A stretch of DNA of 63,995 nt, the filler included, from Circinaria calcarea (taxonomy: Eukaryota), in assembly GCA_051942165.1 (NCBI GenBank). It is 3 parts of 3 records of this genome, joined end to end, with 100 filler letters (N's around TTAATTAATTAA, not from the genome) between each part and the next. Parts side by side here need not be neighbours in the genome. Positions count along the whole stretch, not along the records: positions 22,112 to 44,121 come from JAVECS010000135.1; 2 more parts are not named here. One strand, written 5' to 3'. The notes beneath the pieces were generated by a model. That model searched no databases, was not told where the DNA came from, and saw only the letters and a list, made by a program, of their open reading frames with translations. Both the position numbers and the translations under genes were made by a program. Shown in pieces: positions 1,559 through 43,778 of this stretch (the stretch's first letter is position 1; every line of letters begins with the position of its first letter).

Positions 1559-4500
1559 TTAGTGCGATTTCCGTAACGTCTCCTGGATCCTGCGTAACCA
1601 GATCATATGTACTGCTGTAGCCCCTCCGACTTTGTTAAATTCCTCTAGAATATTCCGTACTTCATCATATTTAGAAATACCAACTCCATTACCTGCCCAG
1701 TGCATCACAGCCTGTGCCCCTAGGATAACACGCATTCCCAGAGTGAAAACCGCAGGCTTTGACGTCCACCCCAGTGGACCGTCAGTTTCACTGCTTGCAG
1801 CGTTAGATAGGACTTCAAGTCCATGCAGGACCCAAGCTTCGACTTGAGATGCTACCGCCGGAGGTATGGCGGTGGAAGCTAAACTTTGCAGAATCGAGGC
1901 CCATTGCTCTGCATCGTCGACGTCGTCTTTGAAGAGATTCTGCTTCTCCTCAACGAACAGAGTCGTGTCTTCCCGTCCCAGCTCTTGAAGCAGCGTGTCA
2001 ACAGGAAGGAGCTCTAGGTCTGTATCATCACCCAAAGAATCCCAGCGTCCATCTTGATTGGCAACTGATAGTGTGCCCGTCAGTCGTCGCACAGCTTCGA
2101 CACACAAAGCTACCGAGTCGGCATAATTTGATCTTATGAAGCTCAGAAGCCTAGATTTTGCTGCCAGGGGCATAATAGATAACTTCTGCATATCTTCAGT
2201 ATCAGTCCCCAACGCAGGATCTGACAAAATCCATGACACTATCGAAGCTCCGTGGTCTCGAACATCCTCGTCATCATCCACTAATACATCATAGATGGTC
2301 AAATGTACACCGAGGAGACCGGAGTCATTTGAAGGAGCTGAGCTGGGTCGCCGTAACGCTACTTGGAAGCTTGTTAGTGAAGACACTGCGGCTAAACGGG
2401 TCGACAGACTCTGATTGCTTCCGTTAGCTAACAGTCTACTCGCAAGGTCTTAAGGGAGACTCACCGCTCGTTCCCCGACAGCCAGTCTCAGCATACGAAT
2501 CCACCTTTCAACCTTCCTTCTGGTCGTCGCCTGGTATGCTTTACCGCTTTGATATTCTTGAGCAAGAGTAATGCCGTACAGCTCGAGGGCCAAGTTCATC
2601 ATTGTCAAGGATGGCATGGAACCAGTGGAATCATCTTGGACGTCAGCAAGCAGACTGGCAATCCTACCATACATTGGGGAGCCCTCTTCGAACTGGCTAT
2701 GTGGCATGTGTCGAGTTGGTAGCATGGCGAGGTGTTGAGAATTTACCATGCGGTCCATCGCGAGAGCCTTTACACGGTGATCCGATGAGCGCTTGGCAAT
2801 TGTTATTAGAGTGTCCATGCTCAATCGTGCTGAGGAATTGGCTACTATCATTGCCAAGGCAGGATCTTCACAGTCTATAAGGTCAGAAATAACCCCAGAA
2901 ATACCACTCTTATCATAGTGGGTTAAGTCACTTTCGGGTGGAAGAAGGGAGAGAATAACTGCCAGTGGTCCTATTAGGAGATCCAAGGCATCACTCCTGC
3001 AAAAAGTCCTGTGCGGATGAACCGGTTGCAGTGCCTGCTGCCATTTGTGCACAAGTTTACCGCGGAGAAGTTCCGTGTGCTCTGACAAGGTTGGGCCTTC
3101 GGAACGTTAGCACGAGTACGTTGTCCAAGGTCGGCCAACGCTATACTTCTTGGATCCACAGATGCGTCGACTACGAAGGCAAGAATATCGAGATATGTGG
3201 CAGTAGTGAAGGGACATGGATTGATCATTACCAAGTATTCGAAATGTGGTATAAGTAGGTGAAGCATAAATTCAGAGTATGCTACACAGCGTCAGCCGGT
3301 CAGTGATGAAAGCCTTGTTAGGAAGTACTTATCAACTCACCTAGATCTCGTCGATCTTTCTTAATAACCAATTGTTTCAAGCAAAGGAGCCTTCCATGCA
3401 ATGCGTTTTGAGATGGTCTATGGGACTCCGAAAGGAGCTGGATGTCCTTCACAATCGTCTGCTCGTCAACCAAGAAACTTAGCGTTACGGCAGCCTTTTC
3501 TCGTAAGGCCCAGAGAGGGCTATCAAGCTGTTTCATGAGAAGACTTATGGTGGAACTTCTGTGATCAGTCGGTAACCCGAATTTATCAATGATCTCCATA
3601 GCAGCAAACACAATTTGAAATCGCCGCGATTTGCTGATAGGTGGCGCAGGTGATGAACTCGATCTATGCCCATGAAGGTGTGGCACATCGTCACTTTGGA
3701 GCAAATGCACCACTAATTTCGACAGGCTTGGGTACTTATCATGCACCGATGACGAGAAGCAGCGACTACCTCCTTTCTTCTGACTGGGGTCTGCACCGTT
3801 TCCACGACTCAATCGGACGAGCAGTGCCTTTAGTAGCATCAAACCACAATTTCGAATCGCCCACCTATAAGGCTTAGTCGAGAAACATAACATTATCACC
3901 ACGAACCCTCGGTGGACTTACATATGGCTCTCCAAGCACTCGATCGCTATCTCCAGTGTCGTTGCTAGATGCGGCTCTGTAGCGGGGCCTAAAACTGTTG
4001 AGGTGAAAACGTCTTTCATACAGTTTAGAGCGTGGACTTGAGGCAGCCGAAGCTCTTCCGTACCCGGGGTACTGGGGACTGAAGCATCTGCGATAGCTTG
4101 AAGGTCAAGGATAGCATTTTCAAAGAACGTCCCTCCAGGATATCCTGCAAGGATGCTGGTGATTATAGCTGGCAAGCCCGCAGATCGCCGTGTAAGCGCT
4201 GAAGCTTTCTCCTGAATACACAAGAGAAATTCCTAATGCGAGTCAGCATAGGAAAGATAGCTATGAGGAAGAATTTACCATACCTCATACCAGCGTCTAG
4301 GAAGGTTTGCGATGGATGGATCGCTCGACTTAGCACAATAGACACAGCATGCGGAAAAGGTCTGCGAGACAGTGGAAAATGCACCCCGATGGCGTAGCTC
4401 TGCCAATTGATTGAAAGCAAGACCGCCTAATCTCAGAAGATCGTCATACAACAGGTTATAGCCAGGTATATTCGGAGCATAGCCTGGGCTCGTGAGAATA

Positions 4501-33494: not shown

Positions 33495-35612
33495 ATGCCG
33501 CCGTTTAAAGATGAGCATGTTCTCGTAAGTGATCTTTCCGGCAACAAGTGTTATCTCATGGCAAAACTCAGGTACCCATTCAGTAATTGGCGCTCACTAC
33601 TAACGTTTAATGTCTTGGTGTAGATTATAGTGCCAGGCTCCCAAACCACCCTCGCCCGGCTTGGCTTACCTGAATCTTTCACGCCTACAGGACTGCGCAT
33701 TCCCACGCGCATGTTCCCAGCTGCAACCAAGGGAGAATGGGAACCTTTCAAAGTACGCGAAAAGAAAGCTGAAGGTCTGACCATTGAGAACGGACTCGAC
33801 ATAGAGAGCGGACAGCATGGACAGGATGCTAAGATGGGAGATGCAGATACCTCCAACTTAGGGGGAGAGTCAAAATCTGCCGATCAAGAGGAGCCCCTAT
33901 ACGAAGAGGATCTTGCAAGTGAAGAGGGAGCTGTCTTCCCTCTACGCGAGGGCCGAGTTGTCAATTGGTCTTGTTTCTTCGCGCTTCTCACCCATGTCTA
34001 CAACACCCTTAGCCCCCCGTTCCATACGCCTATACTGGTTATAGCACAGCCTGCTTGGACGGAGCAAGACCATGAAACTCTTACCCAGTTCTTCTTCGAG
34101 AAATTCAAGACTCCGGCCTTTTGCTTGATGGATTCGGCGTTGGCAACGTGCTATGCTTACGGTGTGCCTACTGCTACGGTTGTTGATGTCGGCTTTGAGA
34201 AATGCGATGTAACTGCCGTCAGCGACTTTCTTGTCAATGATATCGGAAGGGGCATTGCGCTCGCTGGATGTGGCGGTGAGGGTATGACGCAGAGACTACT
34301 CGGTCTGTTACAAAACAAAGGCTTTACCAGAGACATGTGTGAACAGTTAAAGAGAAGTAGTATCTGCGAAATCTTACCACCAAATATGAGTCTACCAGTC
34401 GAAGTAGATGCAGCAAACCATGCCGTGAATCCGGCGGCTGTAGCCTCTACGGGTGCTACGGGTTCTGAACCCGGGCAAGGAACAAACATTGTAGCTCAAG
34501 GGGGAGTGCCTAGGGGCCCTGGCATCAATACATATGTCGGCGCCGAAGACCAAGATCGCGATTTGAAGGATAACGAGGATAATGAGGGCGTTCTGGATGT
34601 AGCGAGTATTGTTGCCAGTGGTAAAACGAGCGAGTTTCTGGCGAAGAAGGAAAGGGAAAAGGCGGAGAGAGCTGCTGCTAAGAAAGCTGCTGCTGATGCT
34701 GCTGCAGCGCCAAAGCCAGTAAGGTTGCCAAACTCGCAACGAGCAAAAGCTACCCTTCATTACGACGAAAGACGGCTGCTCGATGATAGCGATAGCAATG
34801 AGATGAGATCAGCTGAAACTAATGGTGTAATCGAAAACAGCGATCCGACACGACAGAAGACCCCGGAGCTAGTCCGTAAAGACATTGAGGTTGGCACTGA
34901 GCGATTCAGGGCAGCAGATAACGGTCTTATGGAGCAAATAGCCGACTCTGTCCACTGGTCAATTCTCTCAGTGCCTGAGGTCGGCAAGCGGAGCGAGCTT
35001 TGGGATTCTCTGATCATACTGGGTAACGGCAGTAAAGTCAGAGGTAGTATTCCCTTCTTCCCACAGTAAATTCTCGCCCAGCTAAAACAGTCGCCCGCAG
35101 GATTCAAGGATGCTCTCCTCGCCACCCTCATTACCAAATATCTCATCTCCCCGTCCAGCGCCACTATCTTCACATCTGAACTCCCTTCCAACTTCTCCAC
35201 CCCTGCCGCTACCGGCGCCAACACGCCTCTGCGTGAACAATCAACCAACCATCACGGTGGCGGTGTGAATCCCCTCCTGCTGGCTGCAACCACGGCTTCA
35301 AACCCTACTCTGGCCCCCCCGGGAGCTCAGCAACATCTCCAATCGCAACTCCAGCTGCAACAGTACCAGCAACAGCAACAAACGCAGCATTCCAGCCATG
35401 GACAAAGCCCTACTTCGATAAAACTCACGAAATTGCCCGAGTACTTTTCGGAGTGGAAAGATCCGGTCGGGCCGGAAGAGGCTGCGTTTCTGGGGGCTCA
35501 AGTTGCCGCCAAGGTATTGTTTGTAGTGGACCAAGGGTTAAGTAAAGGCTTCATGTCAAGGACGGAGTGGAATGAATTGGGACCACAGGGGATACATGAG
35601 TTTTGTCTTTAA
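33495..35612 (+). CDS. ARP9: Actin-related protein of the RSC/SWI-SNF complexes
   Basis: MPPFKDEHVL|IIVPGSQTTLA, FFFEKFKTPAF, ATVVDVG, LIILGNGSKVRGFK and FLGAQVAAK. Introns 33525-33623 and 35044-35100. Confidence 0.9.
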
Positions 35613-36070
35613 TATCGATTTGGGAAGGAGTCTGGTTAGACGGTTACGATGATACCCCATTGGAGCTTGAAAAGTACCCATGTAGACGGTTCCTCAAACG
35701 AGGCACGTCATGGAAGATGCATGGGCGGATGTTGTGTTTAGGTTAAAACATTTCTTTCAAGTCTGGATTTGCCTAAACAATCAATCTCTCGCCGTTCATC
35801 AGGACAACAATGGAGCTGACAACTGTGACAGTTACGCTATGAATCCGTGTCCGAAGGTTTTGTGGTAGTCTGCTAATGCTAGGCACCAGTCACTGGGACC
35901 AGCAAAGTGTCAAGTAATTTTTGGAGAAGACATAGCTACAATGCCGGCAGTGGCCCTTGAAGCAAAGTGCACAATCGCTCCTATCACCATGCTACTTCCA
36001 TCCGCAAAGGTCTCAATCCACTCCTCCCTATTCTTCCATTCATGGATGACACAGCCTTGGTAGATCGTCC

Positions 36071-36834
36071 TCAGTTCCCGCTACCCGCATTATCAGCCGT
36101 GTTTTTGACCGTATCGCGGTTTTGCTCAGCATCCTGTCCCGGCTGAGCATCAGTCGCGTTTCCGACCGTCTCACGGTTCTGCCCAGCATCCTGTCCCAGT
36201 TGAGCATCCGCAGCAGTAACGGTATCGCTCCTCTTGCGGTTAGGCAAACCAGCTCCACCTTCCTCAGACGCAGGCTGCCCCCCAGTCGACTCCACATGCT
36301 TCTCGCCCAAGGTTCCGGAAACCTGACTCCTGGAGTGGTGAGTCACCGTGACTTTCCATCCCCTCTGCTCCAGCTCGTCCCGCAGCTCGTGCATCTTCAT
36401 GAAGTTGTCCGCGTGCGTCAGTGCCTTGCCGCTGGAATCCTTGTACCCGTTCTCCTTCCACTTCTTGCCGAGCTCGCCCATGCCGTCGGCGACGAACCTG
36501 TCTCGGGTCTTGATGTCGAGCTGCTCGCACGATTCGTCGGGCTTCCCCAGCGTGTCGCGGACCTCTTTCAAGCTGTGGATGACGGCTTCCTGGGCGGCTC
36601 GGTGGGCCGTCTGGGCACCGTCAACTGGACCTTGGATGGTTGTGGTGATGCCTTCGTGACGGTTGACAATCGTTGCTTGGTAGTGGGCACCTGCCTCTGG
36701 GTCTTGATTTTTGGGTCCGTGGCCTTTGATCAAGACGTCGACCTTCTCCTTCTCACTATGGATAGGTTTTAGCTTTGCAATTTTGTGAAGCGATTCAGAT
36801 TGTGGATGACGTACTGCTCCTGAATGTCGGACAT
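36071..36834 (-). CDS. RNase HI-fold protein lacking catalytic residues, with C-terminal repeats (about 234 aa)
   Basis: Exon 1 36834-36815, intron 36814-36756 (GTACGT...GCTAA...TAG), exon 2 36755-36071, all in frame. RNase H-like segments QTAHRAAQEAV, LDIKTRDRFV and WKENGYKDSSGKALTHAD. Confidence 0.75.
36090..36230 (-). repeat. Coding tandem repeat, about 2.5 x 57 bp (19 aa)
   Basis: RSDTVTAADAQLGQDAGQN / RETVGNATDAQPGQDAEQN / RDTVKNTADNAG. Confidence 0.75.
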
Positions 36835-38989
36835 TTCGGCTGTATTGTCGAGCGTTTTGCAATGACGTGGGTATCTGGCCGTTGCTCACAGTAGTCAGTG
36901 CGTTGATGATGGCAATTGAAGGTGTAATAGCTCACAGCTTGATGTATTGATGAAGATCTACGTTGAGATGATTGGGTGGGAAGTGAAGGTTTGTAGGAAG
37001 TACGCAAGTCAAAAGACTGCTTAAATTCACCTCTCCAAATTAAGCGAAAGAATGACGATGCAACCTAGGGCTTTGTGAATTGGCTGACGTCTTTCATGTT
37101 CGCTGATGCCATGCATAGAGCAATGGAGGCAGGGTACATAAAGTCAAATTGCGGACGAGCATATCTAATACAGAAATTGCAATTGGACCGTCTCAGATTG
37201 CAGTTGTTTTGTTTATCTACTTGTTTGATGGCAATATACGCTGCGTTTTCCTGCACCTATCATCCATTCACTTTGTGTTTAGTTACACCCCACGGAAAAC
37301 ACAAACGCTACAAACCCGAAGGAGAAAAATACTAAATCTTGTTTTACAAGACGCTTCCCTTTCATTGATGTTTCGTCTCTAGTATCGCCAACAGTATCGC
37401 GATATCAGGTCAGCTGTACTCCTTAGAGTTTCCGCACCTTCTTCATCGTCGGCTCCGTGATGGTAGCTGAGGCCTTGACCATCGTGGAGGTAACAAATTA
37501 TCCTTGTAACCTTCAGAGGCGTTACTGTGCGTATCTTTGAAAGCTCCAGTCATAGTAACGCTCATGGCTGTTGGCCTCTTCTTCGTTGGCATCTCCATTG
37601 TTTCCATTGATCTCCTTCCCCTTCATCGTCATTTTTCTTGGAGTCGCAGGTTCGAATCCATGTTTGGAAGAATGCTTCGAGTAACTGCCAGAGTCCAATC
37701 TCACCTGGGTCCTAGCATGCAAGCTGGAAGACCTCCAAGAAGGCTGCGGACACTCGAGAGTTGCTCTCCGACGATACCGACTAGACTGTTATGGTAGATA
37801 AGGTGAAACACTGTTGGGGTTGAAGGAGATTGACCTGGTGGCTGAAGCAGCGTTTTGGGATTTGGCAAAATTTGCTGTCATGAAGGCGTTGTTGGGTCCG
37901 ATTGATAGCTTGTAGTACGATTGCGACCAGGCTCTCTGAATGTCACTGCTGTTGGATGGCTTGGCTGCAGTATTCTCTCTTGGCTAACAGGCGACACGAT
38001 TGAGGGACTGGTATGCTGAGCGGAACAACGGCATGGTGGAGCGGGACATTGGGTAAAAGAATCCATGATTATTTTTTGAATTAGGAGAGTGTATGATATT
38101 GGGTATAAACATATGAAGAAGGTATTAGCCGGGAGGGTACTTGAATGTGCTTTTGATTAAAGGGGTGTCTTGAACAATATCGCTGATACCGTTGTAATAA
38201 TCATAACACATAAACAGGAGCTTGTTTTTGCTATGCTATAGAAACCAAGCACATTTAAGACAGGTAGGAACCTTATTAGAATAACTCTATTAGAGTAGTC
38301 GAGATCTATATATACAAACAACGACTCGAGGAATAAACCTTCTGAATATTCCGTCTCAAAATGTCTGAGGCTATGTTAATTTTCACTTCGCCCGCCGTTG
38401 GGGCATTTATACCAACGGGTTCTCCTCTCTGATGCTACACATATGATCCTTTAGGACAGCAACGGGTTATGGATGAGAAGTGCTTAGTCAAGCTGGGGTG
38501 CCTGTTCGGCATAACAAACTTTAGCGCGAGATTTTGACAACCTTTTTAGCAAACCCAAACCACGCTTGAAACTTCTCAGTAAGATGCAAGTATACTCCAG
38601 GTCATGTGCTTGTAACAGTCCCCTGTTTTACTGTAATTTTATGCTGTGGTGGTTGAGGTTTCTGGGGGTATGAGGAAATCACGATAGGGTTTTTGTTTTG
38701 CGTGGCCACCCTGGGTATTAGAATGGACTAGGGTAATTAGCGTGGAGGAGCTTTAGCCTAACTTTTTAGGCTTGGCACCTTCCTACTGTAGCAAACGACG
38801 ATGCTAGATACATTAGCTATTTTCCCCAATAATCTATGTATATATATTTGTGATTCAGGTTATCACATTTTCAGATGTGGTTGTTCTGACTTTTAGAAAC
38901 AGTTCATCCCGAAAAGCGTGTAAATAGTTACAGGTTTAAGCACTGGTCACCATAGTTCCAACTGTTTACCTAGCCTCATAATAGCTAAG

Positions 38990-40409
38990 ATGACTCAAGC
39001 GTTTGATGTTGCAACTGCAAGAGAGCATTTCCCGGCTCTGAAACAATCTCAGGTATTCTTCGACAACGCTGGAGGGAGTCAAGTCCTCGGCGAGGTCATT
39101 GAATCGTACATGATGTCTCCCTTCCCTATCGCGAGAGCACTTATTCACTTACAGCCTCTAGAATTTCCAGGTATTTATCAGAAACAAACGTACAGCTGGG
39201 TGGGACCTATGATGTAGCAAAGCAATCGGAGAAAAAGTACAATCAAGGCATGCAAGCTGCAGCCAAGTTCATCAATGCTATACCAGGGGAGATAGGTTAG
39301 GGCTTCCGCCATCCTTACCCAACAGAATACTCATAAACCCCCCAAACAGTTCTGGGATCATCGACAACGCAGCTGATGCGAAACCTTTCTTACGCTCTCA
39401 AATTTGAAGCCGGAGATGAGTTGATCCTCTCGAAGCTCGATCATGAAGCCAATATCTCGGCTTGGGTTCAAATCGCCGACGTGCGAGGATTAGTTATCAA
39501 ATGGTGGACTTCTGAAGACAAACAGAGTCCGAAGCTGGATCCGGAAGTCCTCAAGGGCTTGTTGTCTAAGAGGACACGTTTGGTTGCTTGCACCCACACC
39601 AGCAATATCCTCGGCACGATATCCGATATCAAGAAGCTGGCGGAGACGGTTCATACCGTTCCTGGGGCTATGCTCTGTGTTGATGGTGTTGCTTTCGCGC
39701 CGCACAGACAAGTAGACGTGAAAGCCCTTAATGTGGATCTATACGCATTCTCGTGGTACAAAGTAATCCCCCCTCTACTTCACCGTGCCCTTTCCTCGTC
39801 TTCCCTAACATTCTCCTAGGTGTATGGCCCCCATCTCTCCATGCTCTACGCAGATCGCTCCATTCACCCTAGGATCGGAAGTTTAGGCCACTATTTCAAC
39901 CCCTCCAACACCTTAGAAGACAAACTCGGCCTCGCCGGATCAAGCTACGAACTTACGCAATCAATCCCTAAAGTCCTTGATTACTTCGGACCCGATCCAG
40001 CTCGCAGCTGGGCAGAAACCAGCGCCCACGAAGAAAAGCTGCAATCGATCATCCTTTCTTACCTGAACTCCAATGATAGGATAACGGTTTTCGGCGAGAC
40101 TTCAGCAAGTTCCAAGCTAAGGGTACCTGTAATCAGCTTCACTGTTGCGAGGCGGAGTTCCAAGGATATAGTGGATGCCGTGCAAGGGTGGTCGAATATC
40201 GGTTTCAAGTACGGGCATTTTTACTCCAAGCGGCTGATCGACGAGGTACTTAGTCTGGGAGGGGATGGGGTGGTTCGCATCAGCATGGTACACTATAATA
40301 CCGGTAGGTGGTCTTTCATGGCAACGCTAGGTTACGTTCTAACTGTGGCGCAGAGGATGAAGCAAAACGGTTCGTTGAGGTACTGGACGAAGTGTTGTCT
40401 AACCCATGA
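38990..40409 (+). CDS. Class V PLP-dependent enzyme (cysteine desulfurase-like, VC1184/UstD-related), multi-exon
   Basis: FFDNAGGSQV, DHEANIS, HTSNILGT, VDGVAFAPHR, PLP lysine in FSWYK|VYGPH, and VRISMVHYNT. Confidence 0.9.
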
Positions 40410-41653: not shown

Positions 41654-43778
41654 ATGGCACCAACCGACTACTCGCAAGTGGGCGAGCCTGAGCCTATATT
41701 CCATGAACCGATGCTTCCTCAGCATGAACCCGCGTTGGACGGTGCAGAAGCCCGCAAGTCCTTCCTCTCGGTCGATATCCAAGAAGTTAACAACGGGAGG
41801 ACCACTCCTGAGTTCAACTTGCCCACCGCCGAAAGCTGGAGCGAGAGCTCTAATACGACTACGCCGAAAGAAAAAAGCGTCCATTCTCAAGGTTCAATTA
41901 CGAAGACCCTTCACCTCTCAGCAAACGGTTCCTGGATCTTTGAGATTGTCAGCCTATTGGTCAGTGCTGCCGCCATAGCAGGTATCATTGGGGTACTGGC
42001 CCATTTTGACAATCGCCCCTTACCGGAATGGCCTCTGAACATTACCTTGAATACTCTGATTGCGCTGCTCTCTACTTTAGCCAATGCCAACCTAGCCATA
42101 CCGCTTCAGAGCGGCCTGAGTCAGCTAAAATGGATCAGGTTCAAAGCTGGACGGGCTCCGTTGACAGACATGGAGGCGTTTGATGATGCTAGTAGAGGGA
42201 CCTGGGGAGCAATCAACCTCTTAGTCAAAGCACGCGGAGGGTAAGTTGTTCATTATAACACTGTTTTGAGTTTGTCTGGGATTTTGTAGTTTTGCTAACA
42301 ACTTCGAATTTTAGAACCTTTGGGTCCTTCGGCGCCGCGGTCGCTATTGTAGCTCTCGCATGCTCACCGTTTGCTCAACAGACCGCGACATACCGTACTC
42401 GTCTAGTCCAAGCAGATGCTGTTGCCACCATCCCTATGGCTTTGAACTATACTGGGGTACTTCCAGGAGATAGTGTAAACAGTACGTTGCCCTTAGATCC
42501 TCAATGTAAACTGAGCAGCCATTGTCATCTGTTGAGATGAGCGCACAGACCTCACCTAGGCGTCGATTTATTGGCAGGGATATAGGCGAAACATATCACT
42601 TCGGGTAGGCTGACGTTATCTCAGATGCCTTTGTACCGATACTCCCGATGAAGTCAGCCGTATACTATGGCTTGTTCTCCGAAGGAGACCCGTCGGCCAA
42701 TCTCAAATTCACCTGCCAAACGGGTAATTGTACTTGGCCTGAATTCACGACCTTGGCAGTCTGCAGCTCATGTATCGACTTGACACCATATATGACCAGG
42801 TACTGCCCCGGTGGCATCCCAGCTGATGGTGATGTTTCGGAGTGTGGATGGCAAGTCCCTCAAGGGGCCTCGCTAAACAACAGCGCGGATGTTTTCAGCA
42901 TGACGAGCAAAACGCCGAGCAACGTTGGTGACTTGCCTTATACTGATATAATGAAACTTACCTTCATTGGTACGGAAGCCCAAAGTGGTCCACCATTAAA
43001 CAACAACCCTTGGGCTAGGCAATGTACGCTTCGGTATTGCCTCCAAACTTTCAACTCGGGCGTTGTCAATGGGAAGCTACAAGAGAATATTACCTCCACA
43101 ATATTCAACACGACCATTGTCGACATCAGCGCCAGTAATCGTGACACCCCCGTCGTCCTTCAGGCGGCCGATAATTCCACATACATGGTGGGCGAGGGCG
43201 CCATGCTCGGAATCAGATCCTGGTTCCGCGACCTCTTCGCCAGCGGCAGCGCCTCCCGCAACTCGACCTACACCAACAGTACTCGCACCGACGACACCGT
43301 TGTTGTCAACCTAACTGTCGGCATCTCCTCCGGCACTACCTACTTCGACTCCGACATCGTGCAGACCTTTTACTGGGACTACTACGAGTACCCTGCCGGC
43401 CTCGACCTGGCCATGTCCTGGCTCGCAACTTCTATGACCGTTGCTTTCCGCTCCTTCAACGGCGCCGTTCCCGTCCCCGGCCAGGCCTTTAGCTTCGAAA
43501 GCTACGTCCATGTCCGTTGGGCCTGGCTCACCCTTCCCATAACTGTTGTCGTGCTGACGGCCATGTTCCTCGCCGCGGCGATATACAGGAGTCGGCAGAG
43601 CAAAACGAAGCTGTGGAAGAGCAGCGCGCTGGCGATGCTGTTCCATGGCTTGGATCATGAGACTAGGGAGCAGTTTGCGGGACTAGGGACTCTGAACGAT
43701 CAGAAGAAGCAAGCGAGGGATGTCCGGGTACGTTTGGATGAGGGTGGGGATGAGGGGAGCTTGTTGAGGTTCTCGTAG
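41654..43778 (+). CDS. DUF3176-family membrane glycoprotein, multi-exon
   Basis: SGLSQLKW, FDDASRGTWG, PFAQQ, CQTGNCTWPEFTTLAVCSSC, YVHVRWAWL and WKSSALAML. Confidence 0.88.

Follow-up and report, generated by a model that had tools for sequence, protein, structure and literature searches.

The DNA described here is a stretch of 63,995 nucleotides (nt) from Circinaria calcarea (GenBank assembly GCA_051942165.1), called the window below, and the subject of this report is a gene on its minus strand, in the part drawn from JAVECS010000135.1, whose product has the fold of a type 1 ribonuclease H (RNase H) and appears to have lost the ability to cut. A preliminary description of this DNA had rebuilt an intact spliced gene of about 234 residues. 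Exon 1 (36815..36834, minus strand) is made up of the ATG at 36834-36832 and a further 17 nt, 20 nt in all, and ends with the first two bases of codon 7. There follows a 59-nt intron of phase 2 (36756..36814, minus strand), reading GTACGT ... GCTAAAAC ... TAG, in which the middle segment is a branch-like site, and then exon 2 (36071..36755, minus strand), which is open for 227 residues without an internal stop and includes the stop codon at 36073-36071. The intron is required to reach a start codon, because no ATG precedes the RNase H domain within the long stop-to-stop frame (36071-36931, minus strand). The rebuilt frame carries no lesions, and the spliced product of 234 residues matched P0002, the GenBank/NCBI entry 'MAG: hypothetical protein Q9187_001328 [Circinaria calcarea]', at 100% identity and 100% coverage, so that the gene model held up; the entry has no precomputed Pfam domain. 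A second intron, in the 5' untranslated region (36875..36935, minus strand), is a candidate and a matter of conjecture. GTGAGC, CTGAC and CAG are suitably placed there, and the motif triple is uninformative, as triples of this type numbered 25 in the window (both strands) versus 29.6 +/- 6.6 in shuffles; the protein sequence is unaffected by this intron. Circinaria is a lichen-forming ascomycete, and the locus is a real two-exon nuclear gene of that fungus.

The type 1 RNase H fold takes up residues ~10-150 (36326..36748, minus strand), with only about 9 residues preceding beta1, and runs through beta1-3, helix A, beta4, helices B-D and beta5. An AlphaFold2 model made from a 15-row alignment had the secondary-structure order E-E-E-H-E-H-H-H-E, with predicted local distance difference test (pLDDT) values of 83-95 for residues 10-150 and a mean of 64 for residues 21-30, the beta1-beta2 loop. 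When the model was searched with Foldseek, E. coli RNase HI and human RNase H1 were returned at probability 1.00 and a target template-modelling (TM) score of ~0.70, and VIA-align placed it on the catalytic domain of human RNase H1 (2qkk) with Z 14.5, 143 aligned residues, a root-mean-square deviation (rmsd) of 3.0 A and 22% identity. The RNase HI-like fold that had been proposed by eye is thereby confirmed. In the ESM Atlas the first match, at 0.92, was an Ascomycota RNase H cluster, with 177 of 256 features in common. By sequence, human RNase H1 chains matched the window protein at E = 1e-3, and a profile of 8 active relatives matched it at E = 1e-23 to 7e-23; the latter serves to test consistency rather than as a separate discovery, since the 8 relatives had themselves been found as matches of the window protein. 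NCBIfam NF001236, the ribonuclease HI equivalog, gave 18 bits, under its cut-off of 160 bits. The Pfam RNase_H cut-off of 25.8 bits was passed by three relatives introduced below, P0004 (27.4 bits), P0022 (34.7 bits) and L001 (31.4 bits), and a model of L001 (pLDDT 84.5, predicted TM score 0.82) aligned with 2qk9 at Z 15.8 over 137 residues with an rmsd of 2.3 A. The hybrid-binding domain PF01693 (Cauli_VI) was found neither in P0002, P0003 and P0004 at E <= 0.01 nor in the exon-2 product at E <= 10; it is present in P0007 and P0009.

Relatives of the window protein are few. An exhaustive search of 1.84 billion representatives returned 18 proteins at E <= 0.001, 2 of them at E <= 1e-10. A word-indexed search returned 3 of 544 candidates and, with a profile, 5 of 7741 candidates, the same 5 clusters. 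No fused or longer form was found at E <= 0.001 among 7999 scored candidates (707-2015 residues), which is weak evidence. A scan of metagenomes, in which at least three loci were confirmed among the 594 pattern matches listed, gave L001 and two canonical marine RNase HI loci, L002 and L003. The latter two, each at 3752-4255, encode near-identical canonical RNase HI with the D-E-D-D catalytic set (DEDD) intact, the Pfam score of L002 being 116.9 bits, and they served as outgroup only. The clusters that make up what we call the dead clade are P0002 (the window protein), P0003 (90% identical), P0004 (66% identical), P0005/P0022 and P0006/L001. P0022 has 403 residues. P0006, whose cluster has 8 members, is apparently truncated at the N terminus, and the half of the domain that it lacks lies upstream on the L001 contig, in frame with the rest. 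In L001 an ATG at 3703 is followed by a 58-nt phase-2 intron (3732-3789) just ahead of the domain.

For a tree, 25 domains from 20 proteins were used. Left out were P0005 and P0006, as fragments of the clusters represented by P0022 and L001; P0012, a protein of 4374 residues with a 30-residue match; the near-copies P0023-P0032; and L003, a near-copy of L002. The five dead rows fell on one starred branch (99/100), with long stem branches of 1.26 and 1.32 substitutions per column, and the tree did not settle which of the active RNase H proteins is the sister group. We define the dead clade by Ala at the E48 position of E. coli RNase HI with Glu at +2, both common to 5 of 5 members, together with non-acidic residues at the D10 and D70 positions, no NxxADxLA helix, and a low-complexity tail. 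The window protein has all of these. For the RNase H fold, the evidence from the window protein's sequence alone is weak but consistent, and it is through the relatives that it is made solid.

The DEDD residues are the defining metal-binding set of type 1 RNase H (PMC9719913). The window protein departs from this set at each position. In three alignments, a MAFFT alignment of 15 proteins, a MAFFT L-INS-i alignment of 25 domains and the profile of the 8 active relatives, the same replacements were seen, namely K17 at D10, A61 at E48 and R91 at D70, as had been read by eye. The codon for K17 (36725..36727, minus strand) lies where active relatives have 'DGAC', and the residue is L in P0022 and R in L001. 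That for A61 (36593..36595, minus strand) lies where they have 'RAEL'. That for R91 (36503..36505, minus strand), which is followed by D92, lies where they have 'DSEY', and the residue is K in P0004, N in P0022 and S in L001. The fourth residue, D134, sits in active relatives in an 'NxxADxLA' helix that has no counterpart in the window protein or in the other clade members. Profile matches to the window protein end short of this helix, the Pfam match at 110/141 and the 8-relative profile at 171/187; the L001 and P0022 matches to the profile of active relatives extend only to position 166/187 of the hidden Markov model (hmm). The alignment of L001 to human RNase H1 ends at residue 272, also short of the last helix, and the L001 model ends at strand 5. 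No separate exon for the D134 helix was found by Pfam or profile in the six frames of 35000-39000. A 56-residue open reading frame (ORF) at 35913-36080 (minus strand) contains 'FADGS', which resembles a beta1 motif; Pfam gave nothing relevant for it and the profile gave E = 6.4, and the resemblance is probably due to chance.

To judge from these alignments, nothing is left of the two-metal site, and the D134 helix has either been lost or has degenerated. Acidic residues that could rebuild a site had been named beforehand as grounds for abandoning the idea of a dead enzyme, and candidates were indeed seen, in E63, D92 and E158/E162, together with the 11 His of the domain, but they do not convince. 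E63 does not vary within the clade; its place on helix A, two residues on from that of E48, should by helix geometry turn it away from the site. D92 directly follows R91 in the Circinaria trio but is not conserved elsewhere, being S in P0022 and N in L001. The claim that there is no D134 equivalent stands as far as the profile matches go, all of which stop before that helix, and is qualified by a low-confidence helix at residues 156-165 (pLDDT ~40-48), bearing E158 and E162, that falls on top of the final E. coli RNase HI helix only when structural alignments are left untrimmed; neither the L001 model nor the L001 and P0022 profile matches reach such a helix. Further, the metal sites now hold the cationic K17 and R91, and the beta1 Asp is conserved in all active enzymes of the RNase H-like superfamily (PMC3985635). 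A still-active nuclease with a rebuilt site is therefore most improbable.

The loss of the catalytic site is old: it is common to a small clade that has diverged to ~33% identity and that has kept an open frame, the fold, a genomic place and a similar intron. The RNase H part of L001 is 33% identical to that of the window protein over 138 residues, and the adjoining actin-related C terminus is 63% identical over 144 residues. In both the window and L001 the actin-related gene is convergent with the RNase H gene and lies just downstream of it. Position, reading frame and fold have thus persisted, along with a similar first intron, in a gene in which two in three residues have changed. These observations bear on whether the locus is a decaying relic or a mis-annotated ORF, that is, a former RNase H gene in neutral drift and without function. 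The loss of every catalytic residue, the long stem branches and the small number of relatives are what a relic would be expected to show. Against this, the frame is open and the folds are confidently predicted in lineages just 33% identical, and synteny and intron are conserved. The domain is also better conserved than the tail in the comparison with P0003, where 131 of 136 domain residues are identical versus 66 of 84 tail residues (Fisher p = 5e-5). Finally, the domain (36326-36748) has a GC content at third codon positions (GC3) of 0.79, the highest value measured, unlike the flanking non-coding DNA (GC 0.44-0.47). The claim that the domain is GC3-richer than its flanks is borne out by the 10 neighboring ORFs, whose values lie between 0.47 and 0.67; in the tail of the same gene GC3 is 0.56, and the domain of the L001 orthologue, at 0.59, is not raised. 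A strong bias towards C- and G-ending codons often accompanies high expression in filamentous ascomycetes. In view of the conserved frame, fold, synteny and domain, decay is quite improbable, and the locus is very probably a dead but conserved RNase H-fold gene.

Downstream of the fold lies a low-complexity tail that is predicted to be disordered (residues 151-234, 36074..36325, minus strand; pLDDT 34-52). Within it Tandem Repeats Finder reported 2.1 copies of a 57-nt repeat with a 19-residue unit (36092..36208, minus strand; 83% matches, score 164), and the tail of P0004 has 19 residues, one repeat, deleted relative to the window protein. All dead-clade members have low-complexity tails, and their compositions are unrelated, with Q/D/N repeats in the window protein and a G/Y-rich and acidic make-up in P0022 and P0006.

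The genes around the RNase H gene were compared with Pfam, 10 long ORFs between 23996 and 45414 being scanned. All 10 are housekeeping-type or without a Pfam match. They include an NTE-type lysophospholipase, a DUF4646 protein, an IMP 5'-nucleotidase (ISN1), a DUF3176 protein and an Ofd1/Tpa1-type oxygenase, as well as an actin-related protein, split into two ORF pieces with a Pfam match for the first alone, and a class V aminotransferase, also in two ORF pieces. The actin-related gene is at 33624-35612 (plus strand), and it is its C-terminal part (35070-35612), rich in Q, A and S and without a Pfam match, that is 63% identical to the L001 neighbor. One of the 10, a plus-strand open frame of 389 residues at 42609-43778 with a GC3 of 0.67, has no Pfam match at E <= 0.001.

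No reverse transcriptase or integrase was found among the 10 ORFs, and of 1604 six-frame pieces of the window only the ORF of the RNase H gene itself matched the RNase H profile, so that the absence of adjacent retroelement sequence, claimed earlier, was upheld. A fused or adjacent reverse transcriptase or integrase is the mark of a retroelement RNase H, and the window protein has neither. Domestication of an RNase H captured from a long terminal repeat (LTR) or non-LTR element, with later loss of activity, was considered, as retroviral and foamy-virus RNase H scored nearly as high in structural comparison (7o0g Z 14.2, 2lsn Z 12.9) as the cellular enzymes, and as RVT_3 is also found on some ESM Atlas clusters. 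Such an origin is very unlikely, given that the gene lies among housekeeping genes in two lineages, that no reverse transcriptase, integrase or other RNase H piece was found in the window, and that by sequence it stands closest to RNase H1 and to fungal RNase H proteins of the stand-alone kind, though the tree leaves the sister group unsettled. On the strength of these sequence comparisons, the gene is neither a relic nor a fragment of a retroelement.

What might a dead RNase H domain do? In human RNase H1 the DNA strand is contacted by R179, T181 and N240, which form the phosphate pocket, by F213, W221 and W225 of the channel, and by S233 (PMC5363678), and the basic-protrusion channel is lined by tryptophans (PMC4132731). 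These contacts were mapped through the alignment to human RNase H1, with an offset of 132 fixed by the D210N residue, which also recovers T181, F213, W221, W225, S233 and N240, and with R179 placed by ungapped extension; residues of the other clade members were taken from columns of the 25-domain L-INS-i alignment. The basic protrusion of the window protein (36413..36466, minus strand) comprises K104-H121, contains the invariant residues K105, W106, N109, G110 and Y111, and aligns with residues 221-240 of human RNase H1; its motif KKWKENGYK...GK likewise aligns with the human enzyme. Four of the seven contacts are kept in the window protein. T181 corresponds to T56, which is T in P0004, P0022 and L001 as well; F213 to F94, which is Y in all three; W225 to W106, W in all three; and S233 to S114, which is S in P0004 and A in P0022 and L001. 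The other three are changed: R179 corresponds to A54 (L in P0004, R in P0022 and L001), N240 to H121 (N in P0004, P0022 and L001), and W221 to L102 (A in P0004, Y in P0022, H in L001). Thus P0022 and L001 retain the whole R/T/N pocket and the invariant Trp, and P0004 retains T, N, W and S. The claimed retention of the substrate-binding protrusion is correct for the motif and for T56, F94, W106 and S114, but not for the positions of A54, H121 and L102. In a 6-row alignment of the clade, 20 domain columns were invariant, and 11 of these lie within residues 95-128, which extend from helix B through the protrusion to helix D.

The reading we favor, and consider probable, is that the gene encodes a stand-alone type 1 RNase H domain that is incapable of cleavage, carries a disordered repeat tail and works as a non-catalytic binder. 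A duplex, most plausibly an RNA:DNA hybrid, would dock on the retained surface of helix A, beta4 and the basic protrusion, by way of T56, F94, W106, S114 and the Lys-rich loop. This surface is favored because the pattern of contact residues and the invariant columns within 95-128 fit retained binding of a duplex backbone. The docked duplex would be left uncut, and the role of the disordered tail might be to bring in other factors or set their spacing. The positively charged K17 and R91 (K in P0004) of the Circinaria lineage, at the former metal-ion positions, could touch a backbone phosphate directly. Taking as given that the gene is a dead, conserved RNase H-fold gene, we put nucleic acid binding at a little short of an even chance, and specific binding of RNA:DNA hybrids is doubtful. 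The interpretation offered in the preliminary description accordingly divides in two: a dead, repurposed RNase H agrees with the intact gene, the fold, the loss of the site and the lack of a retroelement, and the binding or protection of hybrids, or a decoy role, is no more than a possibility.

Several observations weigh against a retained role in hybrid binding or against the favored reading more generally. In the window copy two of the three phosphate-pocket residues (R179 to A54, N240 to H121) and the channel residue W221 (to L102) are altered. The replacements at the former site vary over the clade (K/L/R at D10, R/K/N/S at D70), and no single new chemistry has been selected there. The net charge of the domain is -4, although active relatives range from -18 to +7, so that charge is uninformative as a proxy for binding. 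Residues 95-128 are also part of the fold core, and their conservation may be structural rather than functional. In comparison with P0004 the domain (101 of 136 residues identical) and the tail (45 of 65) do not differ significantly (p = 0.5). And the Pfam match of the window protein to RNase_H (PF00075), at 20.3-20.4 bits and E = 6e-4, falls below the gathering cut-off.

Some of these points would be accounted for if the fold had lost nucleic acid binding too and had become a protein-interaction module, a handle for a partner or for self-assembly, with function carried by the tail. This is the main rival, and we regard it as rather unlikely. The eroded phosphate pocket of the Circinaria lineage (A54 and H121 for R179 and N240), the net negative charge of the domain, and the presence of low-complexity tails of unrelated composition throughout the clade all suit it. 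It does not readily explain why the invariant W106, the K105-W-x-x-N-G-Y motif and T56 coincide with the DNA-contact residues of human RNase H1, nor why the full R/T/N pocket is kept in P0022 and L001, and no partner is known.

If the favored reading, that of a non-catalytic binder, is carried further, the clade, so far met only in the Circinaria MAG and a few other assemblies, might be a small natural family of 'dead RNase H1' proteins that read RNA:DNA hybrids, such as R-loops or retroelement intermediates, without cutting them. The tail would then recruit partners or drive clustering, and the protein might act as a shield or as a competitor of active RNase H or of reverse transcriptases. 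This would be the cellular counterpart of the D210N probe discussed below; we offer it as a speculation with the odds well against it. A conserved stand-alone type 1 RNase H without the core catalytic residues would in either case be a natural experiment on the non-cutting roles of the fold. If hybrids are bound, the protein would be a native R-loop reader, compact at ~140 folded residues and a possible probe; if they are not, a nuclease fold would have been recycled as a scaffold with a fast-changing disordered tail. In practice, an entry named 'hypothetical protein', for which no Pfam domain is precomputed, can now be annotated better.

Compared with type 1 RNase H as known from E. coli RNase HI and human RNase H1 (PDB 2qk9/2qkk/6vrd), the window protein shares the fold from beta1 to beta5, including the basic protrusion, and with the human enzyme in particular it shares the W-K-x-N-G-(W/Y)-K motif and the equivalents of T181, F213, W225 and S233. 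It differs from these enzymes in having K, A and R for D10, E48 and D70, in the loss or degeneration of the D134 helix and in the added repeat tail. It also differs from human RNase H1 in lacking the N-terminal hybrid-binding domain and in the changed equivalents of R179, N240 and W221. The window protein is descended from type 1 RNase H. Because the DEDD set fails and the hybrid-binding domain of RNase H1 is lacking, we do not file it as an RNase H enzyme.

The nearest active relatives, at 30-34% identity, are the stand-alone fungal RNase H proteins P0016-P0020, which include Serendipita hypothetical proteins and an Athelia 'ribonuclease H-like protein'. Like the window protein they are fungal and single-domain, and they have the KW(K/R)xNGY motif and the ELE..G..V of helix D-beta5. 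Unlike it, most retain D-E-D-D and score 66-84 bits with Pfam, and the window clade is a separate long-stemmed branch. In P0016, P0017 and P0019 a Cys-rich, CxxC-like motif lies shortly ahead of the RNase H domain; it is absent from the dead clade. Two further single-domain proteins have departures of their own: P0013 (Athelia, 154 residues) shows partial loss of the site with V at E48, and P0015 (114 residues) has A at E48 and G at D134 with D70 kept. A resemblance to a 'Dikarya RNase H group' had been suggested. The resemblance is reasonable in that the nearest active relatives are stand-alone fungal proteins of Basidiomycota (Serendipita, Athelia) and Ascomycota (ESM Atlas clusters), but a literature search, which most subscription papers lay outside, brought up neither a group of that name nor any account of fungal type 1 RNase H proteins that are dead and stand alone, and 'Dikarya' does not occur in PMC4408406.

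Catalytically dead RNase H1 D210N is used as an R-loop probe. This engineered protein, solved with hybrids (PDB 2qk9, 2qkb, 2qkk), binds hybrids without cutting them and is our working model for the natural protein. The two are unlike in that D210N has one residue changed and all binding contacts kept, and the natural protein has lost the core carboxylates and three of the seven DNA contacts. Natural catalytic replacements, E48 to K and D70 to E or N, are found in tandem RNase H proteins, namely P0008 (509 residues, 3 domains, of which 2-3 are degenerate) and P0010 (379 residues, 2 domains, the second degenerate). There each polypeptide also contains an intact copy next to the degenerate repeats, whose last helix is kept; the window protein, by contrast, stands alone.

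Non-catalytic RNase H-like domains within large proteins are known already. The connection or tether domain of retroviral reverse transcriptase has a non-catalytic RNase H-like fold (PMC4408406), Prp8 has an RNase H-like domain, incomplete active sites being found in the superfamily generally (PMC3985635), and the pseudonuclease TEFM is reported to have an RNase H-like fold without catalysis (PMC9950373). These resemble the window protein in that the site is incomplete or absent and the fold is kept for binding or scaffolding. They differ in being large multidomain proteins or members of other branches of the superfamily, whereas the window protein, a cellular type 1 RNase H that bears a basic protrusion, stands alone. 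In sum, the novelty lies in a cellular gene family, syntenic and intron-bearing, whose stand-alone type 1 RNase H domains are fully dead and whose low-complexity tails vary.

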